Below are positions 24,588-42,439 of a stretch of DNA of 64,000 bases, in pieces (positions within the stretch are counted from its first letter, which is position 1; every line of letters starts with the position of its first letter). This stretch comes from Gemmatimonadota bacterium. GTDB lineage: Bacteria > GCA-2686955. The notes under the pieces were generated by a model. That model searched no databases. It saw nothing but the letters and a program-made list of their open reading frames with translations, and was not told where the DNA came from. A program made the translations under genes and the position numbers. The stretch lies in NCBI GenBank assembly GCA_002686955.1, contig NYZA01000108.1:1312-65311 (forward strand), in the 5' to 3' direction.

Positions 24588-25538
24588 ATGCGCCTCCCGC
24601 TCCTCTTCGTGTTGTTCCCAATCGCCGTCGCTCAACCGGCGGCGCACTCCGGCCTCCTTATCACCGAGGTCCTGGCCAACGCCCGCGATGAATCGGGCTC
24701 CCCTGGTTCGGGAGAGTGGGTCGAGCTGCTGAACGCGGGCCCCGGCGAGATCGACTTCGGGGGCTGGACGATTAGCGATGGAGATCAAACCGACGAGGTG
24801 GTCGCGGCGAATCCCGGTGGTTCGACGGTGCTCGGGCCCAGGCGCTTCGCGCTGATCATCGATCCCGACCGCCCGCGAGCCGACGCTCCTTGGCCACGCG
24901 GAACACTCCTGCTCACGGTGGACGACCGCTCGATCGGCAACGGGCTCTCTCCCTCCGATCGCCTTCGAATCGCGCCACCGCTCGGCGGGCGAGCCGCCAC
25001 CTACTTCGAGGGCGAAGAGAGCGAGCCTCCCGATCCGGGAAGGGGGCTCTCGATGGAGCGGGTGCGCCTGAAGGTGCGCGAGAAAGGCCGCGAGAACTGG
25101 CGCCCCTCCCGCCTCGTCGGGGGCACCCCCGGGGCACTCAACTCGGCCACCCTGCTGAATCTGCATTCGAAAGGAGCCGGAGCCGCCCGGTGGCTCTGGT
25201 CTTCGGGCGAGTGGGGAATCGCATCGGCCGATTGGTCCGCGGCGTGGATGGCCGAAGCCGGCTCCCACTCGATGGGAAGCGAAGGCTCGGCCGCCGCCGC
25301 TCGCGTCTCCACAGCGGCCGACGGATCGGCGCGCCTATCCCTTCGCCTCGGTCCCGATGTCGAGGGGCGGGTGCTCCATCTCTCGCTCGATCTGGCCGAG
25401 GGCTCGCTCCTGCCCGCCCTCTTCGGCGGGCAGACTACTTCTGCTGGGGAGGCTCCTCCACGTAGACCCATGGCCGGATCTTCTCCAGCGTCTTCGGACC
25501 GATCCCCTTCACCTCGAGAAGCTCCTCCACCGTCTTGA
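24588..25538 (+). CDS. secreted lamin-tail-domain (LTD) protein
   Basis: Signal peptide followed by LLITEVLANA...EWVELLNAGPGEIDFGGWTISDGD...GLSMERV, which matches the LTD pattern. The low-complexity C-terminus overlaps the convergent gene by about 100 nt. Confidence 0.65.
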   Translation: MRLPLLFVLFPIAVAQPAAHSGLLITEVLANARDESGSPGSGEWVELLNAGPGEIDFGGWTISDGDQTDEVVAANPGGSTVLGPRRFALIIDPDRPRADAPWPRGTLLLTVDDRSIGNGLSPSDRLRIAPPLGGRAATYFEGEESEPPDPGRGLSMERVRLKVREKGRENWRPSRLVGGTPGALNSATLLNLHSKGAGAARWLWSSGEWGIASADWSAAWMAEAGSHSMGSEGSAAAARVSTAADGSARLSLRLGPDVEGRVLHLSLDLAEGSLLPALFGGQTTSAGEAPPRRPMAGSSPASSDRSPSPREAPPPS

Positions 25539-26586
25539 AGGGTCCATTTTCGGCTCTGTAGGCGAGGATGCGTTGGGCGGTCACCGGCCCCACGCTGGGC
25601 AAGCGATCGAGCGTCTTCGCATCGGCCCGATTCAGATCGATCGGCTGATCGGGCGTCGTGGCGCCCCGTGAAGACCTGACCCTGAAGCGCGCGGGTTGAT
25701 CGGGCAGAAGAGAGCCGTAGTGCAGAACGAGGCCGAGCCGATGGGTTCCTCCCAAACTGGGGTGATCCATGAAGGCGTAGTCGAGCCGCGCGCGGCTGAG
25801 CTGGGCGCCGAAACCGAGGGAGTAGAGCATCGGCGTCGTGGAATAACCCGGCTGAGGGTTGCCGACGGTGGCCGCCATTCCGGCTCGCAACGCCAGGAGT
25901 TTGTGTACGCGCACCTCTTGGCCGATGTGCAGGCGCGCGGGGAACCCCTCTTCGACGGAGAGGTCGGCGGCGAGCAGAATCCCCTGCTCCACGTCGAAGG
26001 CGATTCCCAGTTTGCCCGCACGTCCCGGCTCGACGGAGGCGTCGCCGATGCTGGGGCGATTCAGGTGGCGACCGACCGCGCCGACTCGGATCCGGTCGGT
26101 GGCGCGGTAGAGCAGTCCGGCATCGAGGCTCGGTCCCCAATCGGCGCCGTAGGTCGGGCGGATGTCGAGGCCGAGAAACGCGATCGACGCACCCAGGAGC
26201 AGACGATCGTGCACCTCTCTGGCCACTCCCAGCCGCAGTGTTCGCTCGGTGTAGTAGTTCGACTTGCCCAGGGTGGTGACGCCGATTCCGAAGGAGCCGA
26301 TCACGGTGGGTTGCACGACCGAGAAGGCGAGCTGGTCGAGGTTTCCCAGACCGAAGGGGCGCGCCACTTCGGTCATCATCTCTCCGCCAGCCAGAAGCCG
26401 CATGCCGGCGGGATTCCAGAAGAGCGCCGCGGCGTCGTCGGCGAGCGCCGCGTGCGCCCCAGCGAGCGCCAGCGGACGTGCCCCGCGCTCCAAATCTTCG
26501 AAAGCCGCCCGAGCGGAGTCGGGAGCGACGAATGCGAAGAGCGTGATCAGCAGACCCGCGGCGACTCGGATGGTTGGGCGCCTCAT
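25435..26586 (-). CDS. FadL/PorV-like outer-membrane beta-barrel with C-terminal ComEA-type helix-hairpin-helix DNA-binding module
   Basis: Signal peptide, then the N-terminal motif LALAGAHAALADDAAALFWNPAGM. The C-terminus IDLNRADAKTLDRLPSVGPVTAQRILAYRAENGPFKTVEELLEVKGIGPKTLEKI is a textbook ComEA HhH domain. ATGA overlap with the upstream gene. Confidence 0.75.
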   Translation of the reverse strand: MRRPTIRVAAGLLITLFAFVAPDSARAAFEDLERGARPLALAGAHAALADDAAALFWNPAGMRLLAGGEMMTEVARPFGLGNLDQLAFSVVQPTVIGSFGIGVTTLGKSNYYTERTLRLGVAREVHDRLLLGASIAFLGLDIRPTYGADWGPSLDAGLLYRATDRIRVGAVGRHLNRPSIGDASVEPGRAGKLGIAFDVEQGILLAADLSVEEGFPARLHIGQEVRVHKLLALRAGMAATVGNPQPGYSTTPMLYSLGFGAQLSRARLDYAFMDHPSLGGTHRLGLVLHYGSLLPDQPARFRVRSSRGATTPDQPIDLNRADAKTLDRLPSVGPVTAQRILAYRAENGPFKTVEELLEVKGIGPKTLEKIRPWVYVEEPPQQK

Positions 26587-29500
26587 CGCAACGGCCTCGC
26601 AACTACGACGGTCCGTTTCGCCTGCATCAGACTTTCCCCTTTCGCTTCGGCGAGGAGGATGTAGATCCCTACGCCGAGCGTGCGCCCCGCGTCGTCGGTG
26701 CCGTCCCAGACGAACACTCCATTCGCGCTGCCGACCTCGTCCACGAGGGTTCTCACGGGGCGCCCGAGCGAGTCGAAGACCCGGAGGGTGAACACCGATT
26801 TCGGCGGTAGCCGGTAGCGGATCGCGGTTTCGTCCTGGAAACCGTTGCCGTCCGGGGAGAAGGGATCGGGGCCGACCTCGAGCGAGATGCCGGAAGAGAA
26901 ACCTCCGGCGAGGCTGTTGGCGCGGCCCGGCGTCGATCCGGAGGGGTCGACCGAGAGCCACCAGTTCGCCTCACTGGCGGGGTTCCCCCGGTGATCGATC
27001 CGCTCCCACGAGACGCCGGCCTCGTTGTCCCGCTTTCCGCGCCAAGCGTCGTCGTAGGGGACTCGGTCCACCACGAATCCCCGCGGATCGGCCAGCGTGA
27101 TCACATCGTCGGTGTTGTTCAGCGTTTCCCAGCGATCGGGCTCGAGGACCGGAACGTCTACCAAGGGGAAGGAGGCCCGCATCTTGTCGAGGTCTTGGGT
27201 GAGCACGACGAAGGCGCCGGGGGCCAGGCGGATCGGAGAGTCGTCGGCGGCCAACAAGGGTGAACGGCCCTCATCATCGCCCAGCGTCCACCCCGCCAGA
27301 TCGATGTCGCGCTCCGACCCGTTCAAGATCTCGATCCACTCCGGCTGCCCCGAGTCTTCGTCGGGACGGTTCAGGAACTCGTTCACGACGAGAAACGCCT
27401 CCACATCGCCGACGGCCAGATCGAGTGAGGCGCGATCGTTGGTCGGGCGATCGTCGGTCGAGACCTGCGCGACCATCCGGTGCCGACCCTCTTCCAGTCC
27501 ACCCTCGAAGACGATCTCGATCGTATCGCCCGGAGAGATCTTCGCGATCTCGGTCGGGCCGCCGATCAGCTCGGCCGGGGAGAGGATCTCGTTCAGATCG
27601 TCGTCGAGATAGAGCTCGAGGCTCGCGCCGCTCACCGAAGTGGTGCCGGCCACCGCGACGACCGCCGTGAGCCCGAGGTCGGCCAGAGCAGCGGCGCCCG
27701 GGTTGTCGGCGTAGAGCTCGTGGCAGGCGAGATCGCGCGCCACCGGAGTGACGGAGTTGACCGAGCCCGGAGTGCCCCCTTCGGAGGATTCGGCCCAGTT
27801 GCTCTCCGTGTCGCCGGAGCTCGGATCGATCCGTTCGAGCGAGAATCCGTCCCCCGGATCGAAGGGAACCCCGTCCAAAGCGTCGTCATCTCGATCCCCG
27901 GGATCCTCTTCATCCTTGGGCGTGCCGAAGGTATCGATCACATTGTCCCGATCCGTGCCACCTGCGTCATAAAGTGTGAGCGGATCGTTGCTGGCCGCCA
28001 GCCCGCTCCCTCCGATATCGGATCCGTTCACCGTCAGCACGACCGTCCCCGCGGGGATCGAATAGGGCTGAGGCTCTCCGCGCGATGGCGAGGCATGATC
28101 GGGATCGAGAACAAGGGCGTGGCTGCCAGCCGGAATCAGTGTCGTTCCGGTTACCACGCCCGGTGCCTCGAGTGTGCCGTGTGTCAGATCATCCCACGGA
28201 ATGATCGCATCGACCCCGTCGCCGTCGGTCAGGCTCCAGCCGGCGACATCGACCACCGATTCCCCGCGATTGAGAAGCTCGACGAATTCGTCGGCCTTGC
28301 CTCCCGGGATCTCGGTCTCTCCGCCCGCGGGATTCGCCATCACCTCAGTGATCGCGATGTCGGATGGGCCGACGCTGAACGAGATGTTCACCAGATCGTT
28401 GCCGGGAACCTCGTCCCCTGTCGCGCTCACTTCGACGGTCAGTGTGTGGGGACCGGCGGTGGCGCCGAGCCAGGTGGCCTCGGCCGTGGCGGTGTCGCCC
28501 GCCGCCAGAGCGAAAACCAAAACCGTTGCGATCTCGTCGCTTCCATCGATCGTGAACGACACTTCGGCCGTATCTATGATGCCGATCCCCTGGTTCACCA
28601 GACGAGCGTCGATCTCGACATCGTCGCCGGGCAGCGGGGCGCTCGGTGTCATAGTCACGAGCTCCTCGAAGAGGGCCGCATCGATATCGGCGGGGGTCAC
28701 GGAGTTCACTGCGCCCGGTGTGCCCCCCTCGGAGGACTGGGCCCAGTTGCTCTCCGTGTCGCCGGAGCTCGGATCGATCCGCTCGAGCGAGATTCCGTCC
28801 CCGGGATCGAAGGGAACCCCGTCCAAGCCGTCGTCATCTCGATCCCCTGGGATCTCTTCATCCTTGGGCGTGCCGAAGGTATCGATCACATCGTCACGAC
28901 CCGTGCCACCCGCGTCATAAAGTGTGATCGGATCGGTTGTCGTCAGCCCGCTCCCCCCGATATCCGATCCCTCCACCGTGAGGATGATCGTTCCCGCGGG
29001 GATCGAATAGGGTTGAGGCTCCCCGCGCGATGGCGACGCATGTTCGGGATCGAGAACGAGGGCATAGCCACCCGCCGGAATCAGCGTCGTTTCGGTCACC
29101 ACGCCCGCGGCTTCGAGCGTACCGTGGACCGCGTCATCCCAGGGAATGATCGCGTCGACACCGTCGCCGTCGGTCAGGCTCCAGCCGGTGACATCGACCA
29201 CCGAATCTCCGCGGTTCAGCAGCTCCAGAAACTCGTCCGCCACGCCGCCCGGTATCGCGGTCTCTCCGCCGGCCGGGTTGGCCATGACCTCGGTGATCGT
29301 GATATCCGACTCACCGGCAACGGTGAAGGGCAGGTCCACGGAATCGTTCCCCGGAACCTCGTCGCCTGGCGCGGCCACCTCGACCGTCAGAGTATGGGGA
29401 CCCGCCGTGGCGCTGAGCCAGGTTGCCTCGACGGTGCCGGTGTCGCCGGGTGCCAGAGTGAAGACCGAAATCGTCGCGAATTCGTCCACCGCGTCGATCG

Positions 29501-30170
29501 TGAACGACACTTCGGCCGAATCGATTGCCACGGCTCCCATATTCACGACGCGCGCCTCGATCTCCACATCGTCACCAGGCCGCGGCGCGCCCGGCGTCAT
29601 CGTTACGAGCTCTTCGAAGAGGGCAGCGTCGATATCGGCCGGCGTGACGGAATTCCTCACGCCCGGTGTCACGCCGAGGGGATCGAGGCTGGCCGTCCAG
29701 TTTCCGGGGTCGTCCCCCTCGAGAGGCAGGATCTTCTCGATCGAAATGCCGTCGTCGCCTCCGCTCGACCAATGAAACTTCCTCACTCCGTCGAGATCGT
29801 CGACCACCGCGACCGAGTCGCCGGAGTTGCCCAGGCTCATCTTGATCTGAACGATCGGCGTGCCGGGGGGCAGCGACCACTGCCCCAGGAAAGTCAGCGT
29901 ATCGTCGGCGATGATCGCGAAGCCGAAAGGCTCGATCTCCAGCCCAGAAGGCAGTGCAGTCGTGTCGGGGGACGATCCGCCATCGATGAAATCCCAGCCG
30001 GAGAGGTCGACGAGATCGCCTCCTCCGTTGTGCAGCTCGACGAACTCGAGCTTGGTCTGGCTCCCCGGTTCGTTGACGAGCACTTCGTTCAGCACCACCT
30101 CGCCGCGATCGGCCCGCGCGCAGAGGGTGATTGACGCGGCGGCGACGAAAAGAAGTAGCGCCCGCGTCAT
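26583..30170 (-). CDS. giant secreted protein: 4 LTD domains interleaved with CARDB-like Ig domains, with a FlgD-Ig/T9SS-type C-terminal domain
   Basis: LTD signatures VVLNEVLVNEPG..EFVELHN..LSGWDF, ITITEVMANPAGG..EFLELLN..VTGWSLTDGDG (twice) and LVVNEFLNRP..EWIEILN..LAGWTLGDD. CARDB-like PGDDVEI.A.VVN. C-terminus FTLRVFDSLGRPVRTLVD...WDGTDDAG..LGVGIYILL. Confidence 0.85.
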   Translation of the reverse strand: MTRALLLFVAAASITLCARADRGEVVLNEVLVNEPGSQTKLEFVELHNGGGDLVDLSGWDFIDGGSSPDTTALPSGLEIEPFGFAIIADDTLTFLGQWSLPPGTPIVQIKMSLGNSGDSVAVVDDLDGVRKFHWSSGGDDGISIEKILPLEGDDPGNWTASLDPLGVTPGVRNSVTPADIDAALFEELVTMTPGAPRPGDDVEIEARVVNMGAVAIDSAEVSFTIDAVDEFATISVFTLAPGDTGTVEATWLSATAGPHTLTVEVAAPGDEVPGNDSVDLPFTVAGESDITITEVMANPAGGETAIPGGVADEFLELLNRGDSVVDVTGWSLTDGDGVDAIIPWDDAVHGTLEAAGVVTETTLIPAGGYALVLDPEHASPSRGEPQPYSIPAGTIILTVEGSDIGGSGLTTTDPITLYDAGGTGRDDVIDTFGTPKDEEIPGDRDDDGLDGVPFDPGDGISLERIDPSSGDTESNWAQSSEGGTPGAVNSVTPADIDAALFEELVTMTPSAPLPGDDVEIDARLVNQGIGIIDTAEVSFTIDGSDEIATVLVFALAAGDTATAEATWLGATAGPHTLTVEVSATGDEVPGNDLVNISFSVGPSDIAITEVMANPAGGETEIPGGKADEFVELLNRGESVVDVAGWSLTDGDGVDAIIPWDDLTHGTLEAPGVVTGTTLIPAGSHALVLDPDHASPSRGEPQPYSIPAGTVVLTVNGSDIGGSGLAASNDPLTLYDAGGTDRDNVIDTFGTPKDEEDPGDRDDDALDGVPFDPGDGFSLERIDPSSGDTESNWAESSEGGTPGSVNSVTPVARDLACHELYADNPGAAALADLGLTAVVAVAGTTSVSGASLELYLDDDLNEILSPAELIGGPTEIAKISPGDTIEIVFEGGLEEGRHRMVAQVSTDDRPTNDRASLDLAVGDVEAFLVVNEFLNRPDEDSGQPEWIEILNGSERDIDLAGWTLGDDEGRSPLLAADDSPIRLAPGAFVVLTQDLDKMRASFPLVDVPVLEPDRWETLNNTDDVITLADPRGFVVDRVPYDDAWRGKRDNEAGVSWERIDHRGNPASEANWWLSVDPSGSTPGRANSLAGGFSSGISLEVGPDPFSPDGNGFQDETAIRYRLPPKSVFTLRVFDSLGRPVRTLVDEVGSANGVFVWDGTDDAGRTLGVGIYILLAEAKGESLMQAKRTVVVARPLR
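27748..29643. repeat. tandem duplication, 2 x 948 bp, inside the giant LTD gene
   Basis: Units 27748-28695 and 28696-29643 begin with GTGACGGAGTT / GTCACGGAGTT (the next unit boundary, at 29644, reads GTGACGGAATT). They align colinearly at high identity by eye. Each encodes CARDB + LTD. Confidence 0.85.
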
Positions 30171-31405
30171 GGCCCGACCCCCTGAATGACGCGGAAGGTG
30201 CTTCCGTCCGAGACGACGATCAGCGTTCCTTCCTCATCGGTGCGCCGCACTTCGACCCCCGCGTCGGACCAACGCTGAAGCGTTTCCGGATGAGGATGGC
30301 CGTGGGAGTTGTCGGCTCCGACCGAGATCAGGACGAGCTCGGCATCGACCGCCTGCGCGAAAGAGGCGGATGAGCTGAAACGGGATCCGTGATGGGGCGC
30401 TTGCACCACGGCGGCGTCCAGCAGCAGCGGATCTCGCGCGATCAGCTCCGCCTCGGTATCGGCGCCGACATCTCCGGTCAGGAGCGCGGCGAACTGGTCG
30501 AACTCGATCCGGATGACGACCGAGAGCTCGTTCAGCTCGTCCTCGTCGGCGTCGCACTCCGCGGTCAAAACCGTCTCGGGGTTCAGGACGATCAGCCGGC
30601 TCTCTGGATCGGCCATCGGCCACTCCTCGTCGTCGGCGACGTTCAGCACATCGAGGCCGCCCGCCGCGACGAGGCTGTCGACGACCGAGTGCAGCTCGGC
30701 CAGATCGGCGCCACCACCGTCGCGCCGGCAGCTTCGCCAGAGTGTGGTGACCGGCAGGCCGCGAAGTACGCTCGTGAGTCCACCGTAGTGATCCTGGTCC
30801 TGGTGCGTCGAAACGACCAGATCGAGCGCGTTGACCTCGGCGGTACGCAGATACTGGAGCAGGCCGGGGCCCTCCTCCGGCTCCCCTCCGTCCACCAAGA
30901 TCTTCGGGCCATCGGGGAACTCGACCAGGATCGCGTCCCCCTGCCCGACATCGATCATGTGGATGCGGATCTCATCCGCGCCGACGGCGGTGACCGCTCC
31001 GCTCAACTGGTCGTTGGCCGGGTCGTCGTCCTCGATGTCGATCTTGGCCAGAAAGAGATGGTCGCCCGAGGGGAGGGAATCGACGCGGGTCGCGACCAAG
31101 GCCGAGTCGCCCGGGGTCAGCACATCGATGGCGATCGGTCCGCCGGCGATCTCGTCGGGCGCACCAATCTCGTCCTGGTCCTCGTCCAAAAAGAAGGTGA
31201 GGGTCGCGCCGGCGACGAGCTCCTCGCCCTCGTTGAGCACGTTGGCTTCGATCAGAACGCTCTCGCCGACGGTTGCGGGCGACGGGCTCACCCTGATCGC
31301 GGTCAGCGCCAGATCGACCGTCGAAAGCTGCGGCGCAGCGGGCTCTTGCGCGCAGCCCGCGAGCAGGGCGAGCGCGGCGAGCAGCGAAAGTGCGGCTTCT
31401 CTCAT
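30167..31405 (-). CDS. lipoprotein with CARDB-like domain and ComEC/Rec2-type metallo-beta-lactamase domain
   Basis: Lipobox LLAGCAQ. MBL blocks IHMIDVGQGDAILVEF, VVSTHQDQDHYGGL, LLTGDVG and APHHGSRFSSS match the ComEC C-terminal domain pattern. ATGA overlaps at both ends. Confidence 0.8.
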   Translation of the reverse strand: MREAALSLLAALALLAGCAQEPAAPQLSTVDLALTAIRVSPSPATVGESVLIEANVLNEGEELVAGATLTFFLDEDQDEIGAPDEIAGGPIAIDVLTPGDSALVATRVDSLPSGDHLFLAKIDIEDDDPANDQLSGAVTAVGADEIRIHMIDVGQGDAILVEFPDGPKILVDGGEPEEGPGLLQYLRTAEVNALDLVVSTHQDQDHYGGLTSVLRGLPVTTLWRSCRRDGGGADLAELHSVVDSLVAAGGLDVLNVADDEEWPMADPESRLIVLNPETVLTAECDADEDELNELSVVIRIEFDQFAALLTGDVGADTEAELIARDPLLLDAAVVQAPHHGSRFSSSASFAQAVDAELVLISVGADNSHGHPHPETLQRWSDAGVEVRRTDEEGTLIVVSDGSTFRVIQGVGP

Positions 31406-31665
31406 GACGCACCGTCCCGATCTTCGCCTTCGCGCGTCATCTCGAGGAGCCGTTGCTGCAAATCCGCCGTTTTCCCACGGAGCTCGACCTCTCGATCGCT
31501 GTCCCTCTCGACCCGCATCGTGAGACAAGCACCCTCCCCCGCCCCCTCCGGCAGACGCTCGACCGGCAGGAGCATCTCGCCGCCCCCCAGAACCGCGATG
31601 ACCGCGCGCCCCTCTTCGATCCGGTCCACCGTCGCCTGCAATTGCACGATCTTCGCGTCGCTCAT
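31402..31665 (-). CDS. DUF3006-like small protein
   Basis: 87 aa. ATVDRIEEGRAVIAVLGGGEMLLPVERLPEGAGEGACLTM fits the DUF3006 pattern, a family commonly encoded next to ComEC-type MBL genes. Confidence 0.6.
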   Translation of the reverse strand: MSDAKIVQLQATVDRIEEGRAVIAVLGGGEMLLPVERLPEGAGEGACLTMRVERDSDREVELRGKTADLQQRLLEMTREGEDRDGAS

Positions 31666-33464: not shown

Positions 33465-34564
33465 CGTCGCTTCCCCAGCGTCTTCACTTCAAGCCGCTTG
33501 CCGTCGGTCAGAAAACGGATCGTTCCATCCAGATCGGTGCGCAGAACTTCCACACCGGCCGCGTCGAAACGATCGATGGTCGAGCGATGGGGATGCCCGA
33601 ATTTGTTCCGCCGCCCGCACGAGATCGCGGCGATGCTGGGGCGTAGCGTCTCGACGAAGGCCGCCGTGCTGGAGCTTCGGGAGCCGTGGTGCCCCACCTT
33701 CAGAAGGCAGGCCGATTTGAGCTGCCCCGACTGCACCAGCTCCGCCTCCTCCTCCGCCTCGGCGTCGCCGGTGAGCAGCGCGACGAATCCGCCGTACGAA
33801 ATCTCCAGCACGACCGAGCTGTTGTTGACGTTCTCATCTTGGGGCGGCTCGGGACCGAGAATACGAATCTCCACCCGCGGATCGAGATCGAGAGTATCGC
33901 CGCTCTTCGCGATCCGATAGGCGATTTTCCTCTCGGCCAGCCGCTCGAGGAGCGCGGCGTATGTGTCGGACGAATATGGGACTCCGGGATCGACATAGAG
34001 ATCGATCCCGAGCGCGCCCGCCACCGTGACCAGGCCGCCGATATGGTCGGCGTGAGGGTGGCTGCCGACCGCGATGTTCAGCCTGTCGATCCCTCTCTTC
34101 CGCAGAAAGGGCAAGACCGCCTTCTTGCCCATGTCGTCCGGCATCTGGTAGCCGCCCGACTTCTTGCCGGCTCCGCTGCTCGCGTGAAAGGCCATGCCCC
34201 CGTCGACCAGGAGTGTTCGGCCGTTCGGAGCGACGACCAGAATCGCGTCGCCCTGGCCGACATCGATGAGAACGATTTCGAGAACATCCGCGGCCTCGGG
34301 GAGCGGGCCGCGCTCGATCGAGCAGCGTGGACCGATCGGGCGCGGTGCCGGAGTCTCCCCTTTCGGATGCGGAGCCCTGCTCGCCGCCGTCGATGCGGCC
34401 GACGCGGGGGTGACGTGAGCCGGGCGCCGCTTCTGAGATTCCAGCCGATCGGTGTACGGATTGTCGAAAAACCCGCCCGATCCGCACCCCGCGATCAGTG
34501 CGGCGGCGATGGAAAAGAGGGCGAGCAGGGTTCTACTGCGCTGCGTCAAGGAAGGGATGGACAT
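33461..34564 (-). CDS. lipoprotein with ComEC/Rec2-type metallo-beta-lactamase domain (second copy)
   Basis: Lipobox LIAGCGS. MBL blocks LIDVGQGDAILVVAPNG, VGSHPHADHIGGL, LLTGDAE and KVGHHGSRSSS. Confidence 0.8.
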   Translation of the reverse strand: MSIPSLTQRSRTLLALFSIAAALIAGCGSGGFFDNPYTDRLESQKRRPAHVTPASAASTAASRAPHPKGETPAPRPIGPRCSIERGPLPEAADVLEIVLIDVGQGDAILVVAPNGRTLLVDGGMAFHASSGAGKKSGGYQMPDDMGKKAVLPFLRKRGIDRLNIAVGSHPHADHIGGLVTVAGALGIDLYVDPGVPYSSDTYAALLERLAERKIAYRIAKSGDTLDLDPRVEIRILGPEPPQDENVNNSSVVLEISYGGFVALLTGDAEAEEEAELVQSGQLKSACLLKVGHHGSRSSSTAAFVETLRPSIAAISCGRRNKFGHPHRSTIDRFDAAGVEVLRTDLDGTIRFLTDGKRLEVKTLGKRR

Positions 34565-34574
34565 CGATGATTGG

Positions 34575-35726
34575 CTATTTCAGGAGAATCAGCTTGAGGG
34601 TCTCTGTCCATCCGTCTTCCGTCCCCAGGCGGCAGAGATATACGCCGCCGGATCGTGTTCCCGCGTCCCACTCGATACGGTGCTCCCCCGCCGATCGCTG
34701 CTCACCGGCGAGCAGGGTCACCACGCGCTGACCGGCCAGGTCGAAGAGCCCCAGAACGACCGCGGAACGCTCTTCCAGGGCGAAAGAGATCTCGACGTGG
34801 GGGTTGAAGGGGTTGGGGCTTGCGGCGAAGGAGCGGACTATGCTCTCCGGCGGACCCGGCGACCCACTCTCTTCGCCCGCATCGATCGAGGTGGGGAAAT
34901 ACGCGCGGCGAACCAGGGTCGTGTCGATCACGAAGGGATTCGGCCGGCCGCTCTGGTGGTTCGCGATCTGGTTGGTGCGGCTGATCTCGTCGGAGTCGAC
35001 CGGATCGAGCGAGTGCCAGACGCCGAGCACGTCCTTCTGCCGGGGGAAGAAGCTCGCGTCGGCGGCGTCGGCCTCGTCCTTGTACATCGTGTAGAAATAG
35101 AACATCGAGCGGGCGACATTGCCCTTGTGGTCTTCGCGCGGCTCGAAGAGGTCGTCGTCGTTTTCTTGCTCGCTGTATTCCTCGATAAGCGAGCCGGGGA
35201 TCGAAGTGAGGAAGGAATCGAGCCGCCACCACTTGTCGGTCAGATCGTCGGGCAACTCGTCGAAAGGATCGCTCCCTCGCGCGCCGTTCGCCTGGATCCG
35301 CGTCGGGTAGAGGTGGTGCATATCGCTCTTGGCCTGACCGTTCGCTCCCTTGCTCTGCGGCCAGGTGTGCTCGGTATCGATCCCCCCCTGATATGCCTCG
35401 TCGGAGGGATCGCCCCAAGGATCGATGTAGACCGTGAAACCCGTGTAGACCCCCTTCAGCGAGTCTTGGTCGTTGTCGATGTCGCCGTAGAGGATGTCCC
35501 TCGCATCGTCATAGCCCGGGGTGCTCCACGGCTTGTAGGAATCGACGAGAGCCTCGAGCAACTCACTACCCTCGAGATCGGGAAAGATCGGAGTGTTCTG
35601 GGGATGGGCCGCGGTGGGCAGGGCGCAGATGAGCAGCGCCGGTAACGCGGCGGTTGGCAGCCGGGTGCGCATGGGAGGCTTCGCAGGGGGTTGGGGAGAA
35701 ATGGCCGAGCCTTCCAATGGTAACAA
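34575..35726 (-). CDS. secreted endonuclease I family nuclease with T9SS/FlgD-Ig-type C-terminal domain
   Basis: Endonuclease I blocks TEHTWPQSKG, MHHLYPTRIQANGARGSDPF, DHKGNVARSMFYF and GRPNPFV. C-terminus SPNPFNPHVEISFAL...LFDLAGQRVVTL...GGVYLCRL. Confidence 0.85.
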   Translation of the reverse strand: MLPLEGSAISPQPPAKPPMRTRLPTAALPALLICALPTAAHPQNTPIFPDLEGSELLEALVDSYKPWSTPGYDDARDILYGDIDNDQDSLKGVYTGFTVYIDPWGDPSDEAYQGGIDTEHTWPQSKGANGQAKSDMHHLYPTRIQANGARGSDPFDELPDDLTDKWWRLDSFLTSIPGSLIEEYSEQENDDDLFEPREDHKGNVARSMFYFYTMYKDEADAADASFFPRQKDVLGVWHSLDPVDSDEISRTNQIANHQSGRPNPFVIDTTLVRRAYFPTSIDAGEESGSPGPPESIVRSFAASPNPFNPHVEISFALEERSAVVLGLFDLAGQRVVTLLAGEQRSAGEHRIEWDAGTRSGGVYLCRLGTEDGWTETLKLILLK

Positions 35727-35744
35727 CGCAGCCGCTCCGGTGGG

Positions 35745-37133
35745 CTAGAAGTCCAGCATCATCGCCGCCGTCACGCGGAATACCCGCTCTTCGATCCGAT
35801 CCGACTCAGTGCGGGTCTCGGCACCGAAGAGAGCGTCGTCGAAGAGGTCGCCCGTGCGGTACGCGGCGTAGCCCAGAGCCCCGGCGATGTCGATCTTCGC
35901 CGGTCCCGCGGCCATCTGAGTGCCGGCCGTGAAGCCGACTCGATTGCGATCGGCGCCGGTGTAGGGGGCGCCGTAGGTGAATCCGAAGCGGAAGGGGGTT
36001 CCGCCGGGCAGAATATGCTCGACACCGAGCCGATAGCGGGTCACGTCGCTCGGCTTGCCTCCTCCGCCGAGCTCGCCATCCGACTCCCAGGGCTCGTAGT
36101 CGAGCTGGAAGGCGATGTTGGTTCGCACCACGTTCACCGGGTGGAAAAGCAGGCCGATGCTGTGGCGCGAGGCGTAACGGGGGGCGCTCGTCGTTTCGCT
36201 GATCGCCGTGGAATCGCCCACGATCATGGTGGCACGCACATCGTTGTCGAGCTCGATCGCCGATCGAAAGGCGTAGGCGAGCTCCACGCGCTCCCGGTGC
36301 GCCAGACGGACGCCTGCGACGAAGCCGGTACCCGAACCGTCGGTCTCCGTCGTGACCCGCTGGTCGTCGTAGGGCAGCAGGGGTTCGTCCCAGACGATCT
36401 CCCCGTCGATCTGATTGACCACCGTCACCGGCTCGTAAGTTGTCGCTACGATTCGAGAGATCTCCGTCCAGTAGAGATCGACGCCGCCTCCCCACGAAAG
36501 GGTCCATCGGTCGTTCTCGATCAGCTTGTGGCCGAGCGCGAAGGTCAGACGATCGACGCCGCCCTCCTGCATGACCGAGTTCGAGCCGAGCGGCATATCG
36601 GTATAGTCGGCGACGACGTTTTGTCCGGGCAGCTCGGAACGAACGTCCTCGGGGAAAAAGGAGCGGAAGCGCCAGGGCGACAAGATCTGTTCTCGATAGC
36701 TGTAGTCGGCGACGAACGCGGGACGGTAAGAAGCAGCGAGCACCGGCCAGCCGGTCGAGATCGCCCATGCGGCGGCCACGGCCGGATAGGTGTGGCGATC
36801 GGCATTCAGTGCATAAATGTTGTCGGCCAGATAGCCCGAGAAGGAGTCGTGCACCGTATAGGAGCGCCGCTCGTCATCGGTATCGAGAACCCCCACGACC
36901 TGAATCGCGAGCCCTTCGGTCGCCGCGAGGGCTGCGGGATTCGCCGTGACGGCCGCGACACCCTTCGCGAGGGTCATGCCGGTGCCGCCCAACGCCGCTT
37001 CTCTGGCGCCGGCAGCTTCGAAAGGCGATCCCATCTCTTGTTCGGAGAAAGAGATCGACGACGCCGCGGTCGGCGAGATTCCGAACGCGACCAGAAGGGT
37101 TGTCAGGTTTCGCGGGTTCATTTGCATCACCAT
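35745..37133 (-). CDS. FadL/PorV-like outer-membrane beta-barrel protein
   Basis: Signal peptide. N-terminal motif GAREAALGGTGMTLAKGVAAVTANPAAL. Alternating strand pattern. C-terminal ...VTAAMMLDF (terminal Phe). Confidence 0.65.
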   Translation of the reverse strand: MVMQMNPRNLTTLLVAFGISPTAASSISFSEQEMGSPFEAAGAREAALGGTGMTLAKGVAAVTANPAALAATEGLAIQVVGVLDTDDERRSYTVHDSFSGYLADNIYALNADRHTYPAVAAAWAISTGWPVLAASYRPAFVADYSYREQILSPWRFRSFFPEDVRSELPGQNVVADYTDMPLGSNSVMQEGGVDRLTFALGHKLIENDRWTLSWGGGVDLYWTEISRIVATTYEPVTVVNQIDGEIVWDEPLLPYDDQRVTTETDGSGTGFVAGVRLAHRERVELAYAFRSAIELDNDVRATMIVGDSTAISETTSAPRYASRHSIGLLFHPVNVVRTNIAFQLDYEPWESDGELGGGGKPSDVTRYRLGVEHILPGGTPFRFGFTYGAPYTGADRNRVGFTAGTQMAAGPAKIDIAGALGYAAYRTGDLFDDALFGAETRTESDRIEERVFRVTAAMMLDF

Positions 37134-39628
37134 GTGTAATCGAGCTGAAGCCTGAATTGTGTCGACTCGCTGAGCTCGAAGGGTGCGTCGTTCTCTTGCG
37201 AGGAGAACTCGAACTCACCGTTGTAGAGCCGAGCGTCGCGCCAGTTGGTGGGATTCTCGCGATGCCAGGCAGCCTTTAGGTATAGCGAAAGATTGTCGGA
37301 GAGACGATCCCAGATCGAGATCCAAAAGCGCGTGCCTTCACCGTCGACCACGAGGAACTCGGTGTCCTCGAAGTTCCAGAAGAAGCCCTTGAATGCGGTC
37401 GCTCCCGCGCGGAACTTGAGCCGTTCGTTCACGCGATGATCGATCACCGTTCCCAGTGCGATCGACGGTTCCGTCTCGGATCCTTGTAGCGGCACATTTT
37501 CTTCCGGATCCGCGTCGCGATAAATCGGCCCTCCCTCACGCGTACCCGCCAGCCGGCCGCGAGAGGGCCATCGAGTGTGGCCGATGTGGTAGAGGAACTC
37601 GATTCCGTTGCGATCGGAGAGGAAGAGGCGCAGGCGGAAACGATCCTCGATCGTTTGGCTGATCTCGATAGTCTCGGCGAAACCCTCTTCGTTTCGGGAT
37701 TGCCATTTGTGTCGCCACTGCAAGCGCAAGGGCCAGGTCGGTGAGAACTCGAGCCTCGGCACGATCCGTTTGAACGCCGATCCATCCGACTTCCGGATCC
37801 AGGTCGAGTAATCGACCGTCGCCAGGAGCATTCGGTGCAGTCGGTAGCGGGTCGACCCGTAGAACCCCCGCTCCGGAGCCGGCTGGGCGCTGTTGACGTA
37901 GAGCTCCGCCATCAGCGGATTGGTCAGCCGGAAGGGGTCCTCGAAAATCGTATCGTCGTAACGCTCTTTCTCACTGAAGGCCCGATTGAAGGGGTTGTCG
38001 TAGTCGACGTCGTAGTCGCGGAAGGAGAGCAGAAGGTTCAGGTTCGACCACTGCGCGAAGGCCGTCGCGATAATGGCGTCGCCGGCGCCGAGCTGCTTTC
38101 CGTACTCGATCTGCCCCACGGCGTTCTTCCAGACGACCTGCGCCTCGCCGCCCACGACCCGCCGGAACTTTCCCTCGAGCTGGTTCGACATCAAATACTC
38201 GTTGTCGATCGGAGCGATGTTGTCGAGCGCGTCGTCGCGGATGACCCCGTCGAACGAAGGTAGGAAGAAACGGTCGTAGAGCGATTCGTACCCCGTCACG
38301 GCGACGTGGCTGCCGGGTGCGAGCTCGAAACGAATACTCCCGCCCCACGTAGTCTCGTCTACCGAATCGGTGGCGATGAACGCGGCGTTCGAATCGAGCT
38401 GCGTCGGATGAAGCGCGAGCGTATCGGGCAGATCGTCCGAGTCGATTCTAGGGTTCAGAGTGATCAGCGTCCGGACCTGACCGGCATTGTCGAGAATCGC
38501 GTCGCGTTCATCGTTCGACCAGAAGCCGATCAGTCGCAGGTTTCCCCAGGCGAGCTGTGCCGCCGCCCCCTGGAAGGCATGCTGATTGGTGCGGCTGATG
38601 TCGCCGAGGATTCCCTGCTGCCGCTTGTCGAAGATGAGTCCGCTCTTTCGCGGCCGGTAGAAATCGGTGTTCTCGAGTATCAGCCCCTGGCCCATCGCGA
38701 GCGAGTAGTTGCCGGCGACGAAATGCTCCAGCTCGAAGGGCCCCATCGAGAGATTTTTCGTGCCTAGATACCCCTTGAGCGTTCCGGAAAGGTCGCTCTC
38801 GAAAGCGTTGCGATGGGTGATCAGTCCGGCCTCCCACCGATCTCCCACCCGTCCCCGAATCTTCGTCGTCACCTCGGGCTGCTGCTCATCCAAGCCCAGC
38901 AACGCATATGCGTCGCGAACGAACTGTTGGTTGTAGTAAGTGGAATCGTTGTCGGCCGCGTAGAAGTCCTCTCGAAAGAGGTCTTCGTTGTCGGTCATCG
39001 TCAGCGGCCGACTGATGCGAAACTGGGCATCTCCACCGAATCCGCGCCCGATCTCGTCCTCGTAGCGCACGTAGTCGCGGACCGAGCGCCAGCCGAAATG
39101 AGATAGATCGGGAGTGCTGCGCAGATCACGGCTCGATCGGATCGGTCTGCCGCCTCTTACGTGGCGCACGATCGCCGCGGCATCGATCGGCGAAACGCCG
39201 GGAAGGGATTGAAGGCGGTCGGTGCTCGCGGTTGCGAGCGTGATCGGAACGCGAAGCTGATCGATGTAGTTGTCGATCAGCGCCTCGTTCGCTCCCTCCT
39301 GCGCGGTGAGCCGAGAGATGCTGGCGTAGAGCCGATCCATCCGCTGGACGTCGAGGTCGCGCCCCTCTTCGGGAAGGATCGCCACCTTGTCGCGAAGTGT
39401 GAGCAGATGGTCTTGCGTCAATCCGGGCACCAGCCTGAGGTCGTAGAACGATTCGAAGGCGCCGTGGTACTTGAGCCGATCGAGCAGCGCCTCACTCACC
39501 TCGGTGGGGAGCGGCAGGGCGCGAATCTCATCGGGGCCGGCGTTGTTGATATCGACCGGGACCGAGGCCGCCGCGGAGCGCGCCAGGACCAGGGCGGCCA
39601 GCGGCCAGAGGAGCTTGCTCCGGCGCAT
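37127..39628 (-). CDS. large outer-membrane protein: two N-terminal ComEA-like HhH modules + ~700-aa predicted beta-barrel
   Basis: Start at MRRSKLLWPLAALVLARSAAA (signal peptide). HhH 1 is VDINNAGPDEIRALPLPTEVSEALLDRLKYHGAFESFYDLRLVPGLTQDHL. HhH 2 is LQSLPGVSPIDAAAIVRHVRGGRPIRSSRDL. C-terminus is ...FRLQLDYTW (aromatic end). The upstream ~165 codons of ORF 37127-40126 are rejected because they overlap the next gene. Confidence 0.65.
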   Translation of the reverse strand: MRRSKLLWPLAALVLARSAAASVPVDINNAGPDEIRALPLPTEVSEALLDRLKYHGAFESFYDLRLVPGLTQDHLLTLRDKVAILPEEGRDLDVQRMDRLYASISRLTAQEGANEALIDNYIDQLRVPITLATASTDRLQSLPGVSPIDAAAIVRHVRGGRPIRSSRDLRSTPDLSHFGWRSVRDYVRYEDEIGRGFGGDAQFRISRPLTMTDNEDLFREDFYAADNDSTYYNQQFVRDAYALLGLDEQQPEVTTKIRGRVGDRWEAGLITHRNAFESDLSGTLKGYLGTKNLSMGPFELEHFVAGNYSLAMGQGLILENTDFYRPRKSGLIFDKRQQGILGDISRTNQHAFQGAAAQLAWGNLRLIGFWSNDERDAILDNAGQVRTLITLNPRIDSDDLPDTLALHPTQLDSNAAFIATDSVDETTWGGSIRFELAPGSHVAVTGYESLYDRFFLPSFDGVIRDDALDNIAPIDNEYLMSNQLEGKFRRVVGGEAQVVWKNAVGQIEYGKQLGAGDAIIATAFAQWSNLNLLLSFRDYDVDYDNPFNRAFSEKERYDDTIFEDPFRLTNPLMAELYVNSAQPAPERGFYGSTRYRLHRMLLATVDYSTWIRKSDGSAFKRIVPRLEFSPTWPLRLQWRHKWQSRNEEGFAETIEISQTIEDRFRLRLFLSDRNGIEFLYHIGHTRWPSRGRLAGTREGGPIYRDADPEENVPLQGSETEPSIALGTVIDHRVNERLKFRAGATAFKGFFWNFEDTEFLVVDGEGTRFWISIWDRLSDNLSLYLKAAWHRENPTNWRDARLYNGEFEFSSQENDAPFELSESTQFRLQLDYTW

Positions 39629-40557
39629 CAGAACTCGACTCCCACTCCGAGGTAGTGCGATGAGGGCAGGATCGGATGGTCTCCGAAAGTGTAGTCGAAG
39701 ACGAAGTTGCCGAATGCGATGCGGGCGCCACCCGAGAAGCGCGCGGGCTCCGATCCGACTCCTACGCGAAGCGTGAGCATCTCGACGATTCGGTACTCCA
39801 TGCCTGCCCGCAGCAGCGATGGGGCTTCCCCCGATCTCAGCTCGACCTCTCCCGTAGTGACCACGTCGGGATAGGGCTGGTAGGCGGCGCCGAGAGTCAG
39901 CGCCTCGAGAAGCTGAATCCGGTCGGTATCGCCCAGCGTGGGGCGATTGAGGTTGCGCAGAACGGCGCTCAAGAAGGTACGGCCTTCGAGGTTCGCCCTC
40001 ACACCGACATCGAAGCCGACGGCCGATGCGCTGCCCAGATCGATTCTGTCGACATACGAATCGGTCGCTGGCACGTAGGTGCCCGCTGAAGTGCCGAATC
40101 CCAGCTGGTGCATATGGGCTGCCCAACCCACGGCCAAGCTGGAGTGAACATCCTCCATGACCGTGAAGCCGTGCGCGATCGAGAGGGTGAACTCGTTCGA
40201 GAGGCGCTCGCCCTGGCTCGATTTGGTCATGAAGGTCCGCACGCCAGCAGCCGCCGAGCCGAACTTGCCCATCGGGAAACCGGCGTATGCCAGACTGTGG
40301 CTCAGGAAGTCGAAGTTGCCGATTCGATTGTGACTGAACGCCGCGTTCGTGGACGAGAGACTCGCCAGGCCCGCCGGGTTGTAGTAGAGCGCCGACGCAT
40401 CGTCGAGCAGGGCGCTGGCCGCGCCACCGATCGCCATGGCTCGAGGCGTGGGGCCTTGAAGCTCGAAAACGGCGTGCGCCGGGGAGGTCGCGACGACCGT
40501 GCCGGCAAGGAGCGCGAGAGCGGCCTTCAAAAGAGAATCAGTCAAGGCGGGCTCCAA
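39628..40557 (-). CDS. FadL/PorV-like outer-membrane beta-barrel protein (paralog of the barrel in 25435-26586)
   Basis: Signal KAALALLAGTVVATSPAHA. Motif AMAIGGAASALLDDASALYYNPAGLASL. C-terminal ...LGVGVEF. An alternative TTG start at 40530 gives a clean signal peptide. TGATG junction with the next gene. Confidence 0.65.
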   Translation of the reverse strand: MEPALTDSLLKAALALLAGTVVATSPAHAVFELQGPTPRAMAIGGAASALLDDASALYYNPAGLASLSSTNAAFSHNRIGNFDFLSHSLAYAGFPMGKFGSAAAGVRTFMTKSSQGERLSNEFTLSIAHGFTVMEDVHSSLAVGWAAHMHQLGFGTSAGTYVPATDSYVDRIDLGSASAVGFDVGVRANLEGRTFLSAVLRNLNRPTLGDTDRIQLLEALTLGAAYQPYPDVVTTGEVELRSGEAPSLLRAGMEYRIVEMLTLRVGVGSEPARFSGGARIAFGNFVFDYTFGDHPILPSSHYLGVGVEF

Positions 40558-42208
40558 TCACGATGGGCGCCGATGCCGCGGTGATCGAGCCGTCGCCCGT
40601 CTGCGACGCCCGAATGTGCACGATGTAGGTGCCGGCGGTGAGGCGTTGGTTCAAGCGGTCCCTTCCGTCCCAGTAGAGATCTCTGTCGCCGTAGGGAGGC
40701 GCATTCGGTTCTTCCAGCAGCGTTGCTACCGAACGCCCCGTCATATCGAAGATTTGGATCCAGACATGGCTCTCCGGTGGAGCATTCCAGATCAACCGCA
40801 CCTTCTCCTGAGCGGTGGGCGCGAAGAGCGCCCGCGGCACGCTCAAGGTCGCGTGATCCACCGTCAGCGTGTCGAGCCCATCGGGAGGCGTGCCCGCGAG
40901 ACTCAGATCCTCCTGGTAGTTGAGCAAGATCTGAAAAGCGTCGTTGTAGACCGAGCCGACCCCCTTGGCCTCGATCAGCTGATCGCGGGAGAGGTTCTCC
41001 TCGATGAAAGCCCCCAGACCGGCAGTGTCCCAGACCCGAACCGTCGTGTTTCCCGATCCATCCGATATCTCGATATTCCACCCTCCGCCGGCGTTCGATG
41101 GGGTCTCCGTCACCCAACCGTTCACCGTGATCAGCGTTCCGTCCCATTTCGGATCGTTCGCCTCGGCGATGGTGAGCAGACTGTCCGCCGGAAGCGGCGC
41201 CCCGACTCCCAGATTCTCTACTTCGCTGATGACGACCTCGGTCGTTCGGAACTGCACGGTGGGGTCGTCCTCTTCGGGTGGGTAGTCCACCACTTCGCCC
41301 GTGATCCGAACCCGTGTCCCCCGCACTAGATCCTCATGGGCCTTGCCGAACTCGAAGATATTGATCCCCCGCCCCGATTCGTCCTGCACATAGATCGATG
41401 TCGCGGGACTGCCCGAAATCTCCTCCGCGACCTTGCCCCAGCCGACCGTGACGACGCCCTCGATGGTGACGTTCCTCCCATCGTAGACATCGATGCTGTC
41501 CTGAATCGACGCGATGGGCGTGATCTTGCCAACCCACTCGCCACCGACCCAGAGATCGGAATCGTCGACGAGCAACACCTGGAAGTCGTCCGTATAGGGA
41601 GAGACGATCCCCTTCACCGTGATCGAGTCGCTCATGTCGACCGCCGACAGATCGATACCGATCGAATCCCAGACCCTCACCGTGATCTCGCCGCTGCCGT
41701 CGTCGACGCCGATATTCGCGCCGCCGCCTAGCCCTTTGATGAAATCGGTCACCTCCCCCGTGATCTGAACGTAGCTTCCCTCATGCTCGGCATCGTTGGC
41801 CGCCGCCGTGGTCAGCGTCGCCGGCGTGGGCAGAGGCTGCCCCGTCGCCTCGATGCTCGGAGCCGATGAGGGGAGGATCTCGGTCGTACGGTTGTCGTTA
41901 CTACCCTGGTAGTCCTCAATCTCACCGGTGACCTTGATCAGGTCGCCCCGGTTCCACGGATAGAGAGTGTTGTAGTCGAAGACCTGGATCCCGTGGCCGG
42001 AGTCGTCCTGAATGTAGACCGACGTTCGTCCGGACCATAGGTCGCCGTTGTCTCCCAGACTGACCCCTTGGACGGTAACAGTCCGCCCATCGTAGACATC
42101 GATGCTGTCCTGGATATTGGCGATCGGAACGATCGTCTGGGCGGTCGCCGATGTGGCCAGAAGGGTGAGGCAGCAGGCAGGGAAGACGAGGAGCCGTAGT
42201 GGGCGCAC
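40538..42208 (-). CDS. secreted protein with three ExeM/NucH-type OB-fold-like modules and a T9SS/FlgD-Ig-type C-terminal domain
   Basis: Signal peptide. Repeats of I(A/P)(S/N)IQDSIDVYDGR.VT..GV......S.Y(I/V)QD.SG.GI..F.....RG..(I/V).(V/I)TGE(I/V).DY. C-terminus VWIQIFDMTGRSVATLL...LYWDGRD...AGTYIVHI. Confidence 0.7.
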   Translation of the reverse strand: MRPLRLLVFPACCLTLLATSATAQTIVPIANIQDSIDVYDGRTVTVQGVSLGDNGDLWSGRTSVYIQDDSGHGIQVFDYNTLYPWNRGDLIKVTGEIEDYQGSNDNRTTEILPSSAPSIEATGQPLPTPATLTTAAANDAEHEGSYVQITGEVTDFIKGLGGGANIGVDDGSGEITVRVWDSIGIDLSAVDMSDSITVKGIVSPYTDDFQVLLVDDSDLWVGGEWVGKITPIASIQDSIDVYDGRNVTIEGVVTVGWGKVAEEISGSPATSIYVQDESGRGINIFEFGKAHEDLVRGTRVRITGEVVDYPPEEDDPTVQFRTTEVVISEVENLGVGAPLPADSLLTIAEANDPKWDGTLITVNGWVTETPSNAGGGWNIEISDGSGNTTVRVWDTAGLGAFIEENLSRDQLIEAKGVGSVYNDAFQILLNYQEDLSLAGTPPDGLDTLTVDHATLSVPRALFAPTAQEKVRLIWNAPPESHVWIQIFDMTGRSVATLLEEPNAPPYGDRDLYWDGRDRLNQRLTAGTYIVHIRASQTGDGSITAASAPIVIGARLD

Positions 42209-42308
42209 GTGCTTCTTCCGATCGAAGTGGCGGCGGGTTGGGGCAAAAGAGGGGAGAGGCTATCACTCCGAGGAGTGCGGGGGCCACGAGAGTCGAGCTT
42301 TCGGTACA

Positions 42309-42400
42309 GGGGGAGAGGGGAAGAGGATGGGGACCGCGCACTGGTTCTCCGGTCGCCGCCATTCGTCGCCAGGCCTGCCCCCCGGCTCCGCTCCCCCGAA
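42309..42400 (+). repeat. dispersed intergenic repeat, copy C (partial)
   Basis: GGGGAAGAGGATGGGGACCG...CGCCGCCATTCG...GGCTCCGCTCCCCCGAAC aligns with 708-800. Sits about 100 bp upstream of the operon start codon at 42208. Confidence 0.7.
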
Positions 42401-42439
42401 CCGGCCTCAGCGGATGACCGCGAATCTAGCCGGGCCAGG

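Follow-up and report, generated by a model that had tools for sequence, protein, structure and literature searches.

Besides being the substrate for natural transformation, extracellular DNA is a large pool of phosphorus, nitrogen and carbon in sediments, soils and water. The known routes for DNA through the outer membrane are the pilus with its secretin and the ComB system of Helicobacter. To these, studies of 2021–2025 added a TonB-dependent transporter of the DdbC type for Bacteroidota (PMC8459023, PMC12478041). Here we analyze a cluster of eleven genes, g1–g11, and a convergent neighbor, g12, in a stretch of 64,000 nucleotides from an uncultured Gemmatimonadota bacterium (GenBank assembly GCA_002686955.1, contig NYZA01000108.1, positions 1,312–65,311; the window in what follows). 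A first-pass annotation had read the cluster as a system resembling a polysaccharide-utilization locus (PUL) that would bind DNA, cut it and pass it across the outer membrane. DNA-related domains, synteny, and partner genes for a periplasmic 5'-nucleotidase or an ATP-binding cassette (ABC) importer all support this reading. We consider it fairly likely that the locus encodes a surface system that captures, cuts and imports extracellular nucleic acid for nutrition, chiefly as a source of phosphorus, nitrogen and carbon.

This idea is no longer without precedent, since the ddbABCDEF DNA-utilization loci of gut Bacteroidales, which follow the same logic, were characterized in 2025 (PMC12478041). 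Both these loci and the Riemerella anatipestifer genes RA0C_RS04915/04920 (PMC8459023) share with our locus a PUL-like arrangement, in which a surface DNA binder is encoded beside an outer-membrane barrel and secreted or periplasmic nucleases. The likeness extends to the binder itself. DdbD is a DUF5689 protein for which similarity to HIN domains was reported (PMC12478041), and the model of g1 has the same HIN/p202-like character. Nucleases are also encoded within both kinds of locus, the predicted ones here being Endonuclease I (g5) and two metallo-beta-lactamase (MBL) lipoproteins (g6 and g9). In Riemerella, a helix-hairpin-helix (HhH) protein is likewise required. On the other hand, ddb loci are anchored by a TonB-dependent, SusC-like transporter of the DdbC type, and none is present here. 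The binder is lipoprotein-anchored in ddb but has a putative type IX-style tail in our locus, where the barrels belong to an HhH-fused family of ~24 strands and to PorV/FadL-like types. Moreover, the present locus is found in phyla of the FCB (Fibrobacteres–Chlorobi–Bacteroidetes) superphylum other than Bacteroidota. Because the logic and the DUF5689 binder are common to both systems and the transporter is not, we view the locus as a putative DNA-utilization locus built on a different, uncharacterized outer-membrane apparatus.

Two other systems invite comparison. ExeM, NucH and Xds of Shewanella and Vibrio use LTD, OB-like and nuclease modules for extracellular DNA, as our locus appears to do, but combine them with Exo_endo_phos in one polypeptide, whereas here the modules are split over several genes. 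The second system belongs to Candidatus Izemoplasma, hosts that are wall-less and have no outer membrane. The available part of the report on DNA-degradation loci of Ca. Izemoplasmatales (PMC8289736) describes LTD nuclease genes clustered with nucleotide/nucleoside uptake genes for DNA foraging, a similar arrangement; barrels or HhH fusions are not mentioned in that part.

Organization of the locus

Open reading frame (ORF) listing and translation reproduced the eleven tightly packed minus-strand genes, which span 42208 down to 25435 (Table 1). Most neighboring gene pairs share 1–7 nt at start and stop codons. Read directly, the junctions contain ATGA overlaps at g7/g8 (31662–65), g8/g9 (31402–05), g9/g10 (30167–70) and g10/g11 (26583–86), a GTGA overlap at g6/g7 (33461–64) and a TGATG overlap at g2/g3 (39628). 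The g3/g4 junction, ATGGTGATG...ATGA at 37127–33, is an overlap of either 7 nt or 1 nt, according to which start is taken for g4. The first-pass annotation had put the remaining gaps at 20 nt or less. This is the case for g1–g2, as the most likely start of g2, TTG 40530, yields a signal peptide (MKAALALLAGTVVATSPAHA) and lies 7 nt past the g1 stop. It does not hold for g4–g5, where the gap becomes 72 nt because the most likely start of g5 is ATG 35672, which gives a signal peptide and matches public gene calls.

The terminator scan found no terminator-like site in any gap between genes g1–g11, and the promoter scan no sigma-70-like site in the 696 nt upstream of g1. Both scans were uninformative: terminator-like sites were rarer than expected by chance, and the single promoter-like site lies inside g4. 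A single transcript would nevertheless fit the stop/start overlaps and the absence of internal terminators. The base composition of the locus is even with that of its flanks, and three public metagenome assemblies contain the identical locus.

Profile hidden Markov model searches against Pfam and NCBIfam reproduced almost every domain call of the annotation. Since g11 is paralogous to g2, and g7 to g3, the locus can be divided into two partly paralogous modules. Module A would comprise g1–g5, and module B, apparently lineage-specific, g6–g11.

Table 1. Features of the putative DNA-utilization locus (positions in the window)
Feature	Predicted product or role	Position	Strand	Basis
Upstream region	Presumed operon promoter region, 696 nt upstream of g1	42209..42904	-	Sole long non-coding gap adjoining the locus
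g1	Secreted DNA-binding cargo (predicted), signal peptide, putative C-terminal type IX secretion system (T9SS)-type beta-sandwich tail	40538..42208	-	Pfam, AlphaFold2 (AF2), Foldseek
g2	Small PorV/PorQ-like barrel, likely start TTG 40530	39628..40557	-	PorV_fam, PorV structure profile match
g3	Two N-terminal ComEA-type HhH modules fused to ~24-strand barrel	37127..39628	-	HHH_3, AF2
g4	FadL/TodX/BamG-like 14-strand-type barrel	35745..37133	-	Family profile vs PDB
g5	Endonuclease I with putative T9SS-type C-terminal tail, likely start ATG 35672	34575..35726	-	Endonuclease_1, Por_Secre_tail
g6	Lipoprotein MBL-fold nuclease (predicted), ComEC C-terminal type	33461..34564	-	TIGR00361, lipobox
g7	Shorter divergent paralog of g3 (HhH + barrel)	31662..33464	-	HHH_3, hhalign
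g8	DUF3006 protein, no signal peptide, coupled to g9	31402..31665	-	DUF3006 43 bits, ATGA overlaps both sides
g9	Lipoprotein with CARDB-like and ComEC-type MBL domains	30167..31405	-	TIGR00361, weak CARDB
g10	Giant secreted cargo, four LTD, two CARDB, putative T9SS-type tail	26583..30170	-	Pfam
g11	PorV-like barrel, g2 paralog, C-terminal ComEA HhH module	25435..26586	-	BLASTP, HHH_3, TIGR00426
g12	Convergent secreted single-LTD protein	24588..25538	+	LTD 35 bits

DNA-binding and nuclease modules

Pfam detects OB domains in three stretches of g1 (70 bits) together with DUF5689 (40.1 bits; cut-off 28.6), followed by a FlgD_ig tail that falls just under the cut-off (26.2 bits against 27). In the AF2 model (pLDDT 90), the protein consists of four OB folds, arranged as two HIN/DUF5689-like tandem pairs, and a C-terminal beta-sandwich. 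The best Foldseek matches of the model are the HIN–dsDNA complexes of p204, p202, IFI16 and MNDA, and RPA70, Teb1 and CST come next. Judging by this structural similarity, g1 would bind DNA. The annotation had described three OB modules of the ExeM/NucH type. The OB stretches are indeed present, although the model shows four OB folds, and the ExeM/NucH label is weak: g1 scores 24.5 bits on NF033681 against a cut-off of 300, matching model positions 31–113 only, so that membership in that family is not supported.

The second large cargo protein, g10, carries LTD in four stretches (167 bits), CARDB (67 bits) and a FlgD_ig tail (25.4 bits; cut-off 27), and has no match to NF033681. It contains an internal tandem duplication (27745–28671 and 28693–29619) with a unit of ~946 nt, one CARDB plus one LTD, at 77–91% nucleotide identity. 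The homolog in locus L088, a close Gemmatimonadota relative, has 1504 aa compared with 1195 aa here, so the number of repeats appears to vary among relatives. The single-LTD protein g12, which the annotation had paired with this four-LTD giant, was found as described, and its position is kept in L001 and L088. The 3' ends of g11 and g12 overlap by 104 nt (25435–25538), but by only 20 nt in L088; the true end of g12 is uncertain because the C-terminal part is of low complexity (Pro/Ser/Ala-rich).

Three proteins of the locus are predicted nucleases. The assignment of g5 to Endonuclease I is supported by the Endonuclease_1 domain (83.8 bits; cut-off 25) and by the motifs EHTWP at residue 101 and DMHHLYP at residue 117 of the ATG-start protein, which we take to be the beta-beta-alpha-metal motif of EndA/Vvn. 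Its tail scores 21–23 bits on Por_Secre_tail and 22.6 on TIGR04183 (cut-off 23). The other two candidates, g6 and g9, match TIGR00361 (ComEC_Rec2) at model positions 441–663 only, with 152 and 106 bits, both under the cut-off of 190. Their lipoboxes are IAGC and LAGC, and their metal motifs HPHADH and HQDQDH, respectively; g9 has in addition a weak CARDB match. The annotation's pair of lipoproteins resembling the C-terminal MBL part of ComEC, with a DUF3006 partner, is thus borne out. In contrast to ComEC itself, none of the twelve locus products matches the Competence channel domain (PF03772). The DUF3006 protein g8 lacks a signal peptide, yet its gene sits between those of an outer-membrane protein and a lipoprotein MBL and is translationally coupled. 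The g8–g9 pair is kept in L088, and g8 may be a chaperone or an inhibitor of the g9 nuclease.

MBL nucleases also occur in defense systems, and g6 and g9 weakly match the MBL modules of LmuA, Avs1a and DRT (35–75 bits). A role of the locus in defense against phages or foreign DNA is nonetheless extremely improbable, and we reject it because these matches concern the generic MBL fold only. For both proteins, the ComEC C-terminal model gives much higher scores, and both bear lipoprotein signal peptides. Moreover, no match to a defense family appeared in the eight other locus proteins that the scan covered (g2 and g4 were outside it).

Outer-membrane barrels

The most distinctive proteins of the locus are g3 and its divergent paralog g7. 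In g3, HHH_3 is found in two stretches (45 bits), and the ~650 aa beyond this match belong to no family. The AF2 model of this ~830-aa protein (pLDDT 72, pTM 0.71) agrees with the annotation's view of an HhH–barrel fusion: helical HhH domains occupy residues ~22–185 and a barrel of ~24 strands residues 197–833. Foldseek returned merely generic barrels of 22–26 strands (TonB-dependent receptors, FimD usher, MtrB and LptD) with TM scores of ~0.3. As it gave no specific relative, we dropped the possibility of kinship with TonB-dependent transporters, ushers or LptD. TonB-dependent receptor, Plug and CarboxypepD_reg domains were not detected in the twelve products (Pfam) or in the ten scanned against NCBIfam. 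The HhH residues of g3 are invariant across phyla. In the barrel, Arg occupies 17 of 84 conserved columns (20%, compared with 8% of the composition; p = 5e-4), which weakly suggests an anionic substrate.

BLASTP aligns g3 with g7 in the HhH region only, where g7 scores 26.2 bits on HHH_3 against a cut-off of 27. Profile–profile comparison was therefore needed to relate the barrels: hhalign links the two families with 97.7% probability (E 2e-12) over 397 columns that include the barrel.

The remaining barrels, g2, g4 and g11, are members of the FadL/PorV superfamily, as the annotation had proposed for three barrels interspersed among the cargo genes. The g4 family profile matches solved structures over the barrel, namely 9hiv_F (2.9e-19), TodX (6e-12, positions 46–396) and FadL (1e-5), although Pfam Toluene_X stays under threshold for g4 alone; the nearest solved relatives include BamG. 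On the PorV family model NF033709, g2 and g11 score 38.9 and 44.3 bits, both under the cut-off of 90. The g2 family profile matches the N-terminal part of PorV (6h3i_F, 1e-6), and hhalign relates the g2 family to the FadL-like g4 family with 98.7% probability. The kinship of g2 and g11 to PorV/PorQ thus appears to be at the superfamily level only. BLASTP aligns g11 to g2 with 26% identity over 266 aa (E 3e-13).

In addition to the barrel, g11 carries a C-terminal HhH module that scores 80 bits on HHH_3 and 55.9 on TIGR00426 (cut-off 53.1). The HhH modules of the ComEA type that had been noted in g3, g7 and g11 were thus recovered in all three proteins, that of g7 just short of the threshold. 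Full-length ComEA (TIGR01259, cut-off 152) is not matched, so these regions are best described as ComEA-type modules within other proteins. They share the HHH_3 fold with ComEA, which is free in the periplasm or anchored in the inner membrane, but here they are fused to barrels. Since barrel termini normally face the periplasm, the modules at the N-termini of g3 and g7 and at the C-terminus of g11 would face it as well.

Could the barrels be mere accessories of type IX secretion or anchoring, like PorV, PorQ or PorP/SprF, with DNA degraded wholly outside the cell? Like those proteins, g2 and g11 are small FadL-type barrels whose genes each follow directly on a gene for cargo with a putative C-terminal sorting domain. 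Both match PorV/PorQ models, but they remain below the family cut-off and are shorter than PorV, and g11 has the added ComEA module. BamG, to which g4 is close, is a structural partner rather than a channel. However, the ~24-strand g3 has no counterpart among the matched PorV, PorQ and PorP/SprF models. Moreover, the invariant HhH of g3 and the periplasmic nucleotidase encoded beside many relatives imply that a substrate reaches the periplasm. Overall, we regard a purely accessory role of the barrels as quite improbable.

Conservation and partner genes

Relatives of g3 are present in 418 species genomes of the FCB superphylum, each species being represented by one genome. The best 80 come from Gemmatimonadota, Eisenbacteria, Zixibacteria, Latescibacterota, Fibrobacteraceae, Calditrichota, KSB1, Krumholzibacteriota and Ignavibacteria, and the closest are uncultured Gemmatimonadota metagenome-assembled genomes (MAGs; 84–92% identity). 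Synteny was scored in 77 of these best 80 species loci by mapping the window proteins onto them with BLASTP, and the counts that follow refer to loci with enough flank. The order of the core genes is kept in 86–97% of cases: g2 immediately precedes g3 in 69 of 71 loci, an LTD/OB cargo gene stands before g2 in 60 of 62, and g4 immediately follows g3 in 59 of 69. In contrast, the full eleven-gene order plus g12 is kept only in the close Gemmatimonadota relatives L007, L008 and L088. A relative at 63% identity retains g1–g4 only, with ABC importer, MBL and 5'-nucleotidase genes scattered nearby. Synteny in relatives is thus confirmed, with the four-gene core g1–g4 rather than the eleven genes as the widely conserved unit.

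The core varies in some lineages. L050, L060, L063, L069 and L071 (KSB1) form a subclade that has cargo, g2 and g3 but lacks g4; the first four are titled uncultured Alphaproteobacteria, a doubtful title for an otherwise FCB-specific cassette. In L069, a gene of the succinyl-CoA ligase alpha type follows g3. In one distant genome (L092:10001–14071 and L093, GCA_016933695.1), a member of the g7 family (547 aa) forms a minimal triad with a cargo of 540 aa that carries LTD and FlgD_ig and with a barrel of the g2 family (269 aa); the triad adjoins genes for an HD-domain protein and an RNase R-like protein. In the Calditrichaeota MAG locus L053 (9986–19258), a g3 homolog stands without g1, g2 and g4. 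A gene for full-length ComEC (DUF4131, Competence, Lactamase_B) follows 4.5 kb downstream of it, which may point to a connection with competence in that lineage.

The genes around the core fit a catabolic role. Among cargo genes in 40 loci, LTD occurs in 30, OB in 16, DUF5689 in eight and FlgD_ig in 19. After g4, 34 scanned ORFs from about 40 loci encode Metallophos + 5_nucleotid_C proteins. These 5'-nucleotidases are probably periplasmic, as they carry type I signal peptides, lack a sorting tail and hardly ever have a lipobox. Other loci have Exo_endo_phos, DHH/DHHA1 or MBL enzymes in this position, some with Exo_endo_phos twice plus an NTPase. A g6-like MBL gene lies upstream in 15 loci, whose upstream ORFs match Lactamase_B (10), BPD_transp_1 (14) and solute-binding protein (5) models in Pfam. 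In the extended form of the cassette (L006, L011, L012, L019, L030, L036 and others; ~1–6000), MBL, two ABC permeases, a solute-binding protein and a small OB protein precede the LTD cargo, and a second LTD cargo follows the 5'-nucleotidase. Literature searches found no published description of this cassette, of DUF3006 or of LTD in these phyla.

These partners bear on the possibility that the locus serves the outer-membrane step of natural transformation, with the barrels bringing in intact DNA for the ComEC pathway and nutrition being secondary. The ComEA-type modules of g3, g7 and g11, the ComEC-type MBL domains of g6 and g9, and the g3 homolog near comEC in L053 all point in that direction. 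So does Riemerella, in which the DUF5689 protein, the adjoining outer-membrane barrel protein and the HhH protein are all essential for transformation (PMC8459023). On the other hand, both the commonest partner, the 5'-nucleotidase, and the ABC importer of some loci are catabolic, and Endonuclease I would destroy transforming DNA. The ComEC channel is missing from the twelve products, and the part of the window ORFs scanned contains no ComEC channel, DprA or ComF. We therefore think it unlikely that transformation is the primary role, although the two roles are not mutually exclusive and can coexist.

Somewhat less likely still is a system for adhesion to extracellular DNA or for matrix remodeling, in which surface LTD, OB and CARDB proteins would tether the cell to DNA and nucleases would release it. 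The three large surface cargo proteins do bear domains of DNA-binding or adhesion type (LTD, OB and CARDB), and extracellular nucleases are reported to control biofilms of Vibrio and Shewanella (PMC3212620, PMC6085458). Such a role, however, leaves unexplained both the HhH modules tethered to barrel ends and the association with a periplasmic 5'-nucleotidase and an ABC importer.

Proposed mechanism

For a nutritional DNA-import system, the following sequence of steps appears plausible. PorP/SprF-like proteins are known to pair with adjacently encoded cargo. By analogy, the C-terminal tails of g1 and g10 would direct these proteins into a type IX-like export route, and the PorV-like barrels encoded next to them, g2 and g11, would dock them at the surface. 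There, the tandem OB/HIN-like folds of g1 and the LTD domains of g10 would bind DNA, to be fragmented by Endonuclease I (g5) and the MBL lipoproteins (g6 and g9), if their domains are active as predicted. The large barrels g3 and g7 would then let the fragments across the outer membrane, while the periplasmic HhH modules of g3, g7 and g11 would hold or ratchet the incoming strand, as ComEA does; g4 might serve as another channel or act as a partner. Finally, to judge by gene context, the periplasmic 5'-nucleotidase found in most relatives and the ABC importer found in some would complete the processing.

Several observations weigh against this scheme. Barrels of the FadL/PorV type usually transport hydrophobic compounds or secretion cargo rather than nucleic acid, and that g3 forms an open conduit with periplasm-facing HhH modules is our inference. 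The 5'-nucleotidase and the inner-membrane importer are not part of the locus in the window. The g7 family is broad (685 representative clusters), and some of its members stand in contexts unrelated to DNA (L087 and L089). Five cargo proteins from the 40 loci contain CBM_56, a glucan-binding domain. Finally, the FlgD-Ig/T9SS-type sorting domains that had been assigned to three cargo proteins are each just below family thresholds in g1, g5 and g10, and none of the type IX machinery (SprA/Sov, PorK/L/M/N, PorU and PorV) was found among the scanned ORFs of the window. The assignment of the tails is strengthened by their alignment to one another and by the homologous cargo in L014, which reaches 44 bits on FlgD_ig, 28.2 on CHU_C and 27.0 on Por_Secre_tail. 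Type IX secretion has been placed in the FCB superphylum (PMC12398890).

Genomic surroundings

The locus is flanked by housekeeping genes that have no relation to it (TerB-DnaJ, XdhC, redoxins and LpxB). Three genes of the AhpC/TSA or Redoxin type stand on both sides of the locus (23720–24304, 46371–48500 and 48519–49361), and one of the products is unusually long (709 aa), with a weak AhpC-TSA match. The 696-nt gap upstream of g1 contains a minus-strand ORF (42426–42881, 151 aa) that has no Pfam match and whose translation contains PYFYRTADGAEADLVFERGG. The sequence is similar to the C-terminus of ATPases of the DUF4143 type, and the ORF could be the remnant of a gene. The 64-kb window contains no tRNA genes and no Rfam family at the gathering threshold.

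Implications for DNA foraging

The locus points to a further architecture for DNA uptake, conserved in no fewer than 418 species, whose phyla are mostly uncultured. More tentatively, the g3/g7 family could represent a new class of outer-membrane nucleic-acid translocon. Its large barrel would lack a plug, contain its own periplasmic ratchet of the ComEA type, and cooperate with a PorV-like barrel for docking and a DNA-binding cargo exported by type IX secretion, while requiring neither pilus and secretin nor TonB. Such a translocon might be the main route of DNA uptake for food, and possibly for transformation, in many FCB phyla, including Gemmatimonadota, Fibrobacterota, Zixibacteria, Eisenbacteria, Latescibacterota and Calditrichota. 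If the HhH-barrel does conduct nucleic acid, this would explain how these lineages forage for DNA, and the cassette genes would serve as markers of DNA foraging in metagenomes. The family would also be a small, experimentally testable system for studying how a polymer passes through a barrel to which a ratchet is tethered.

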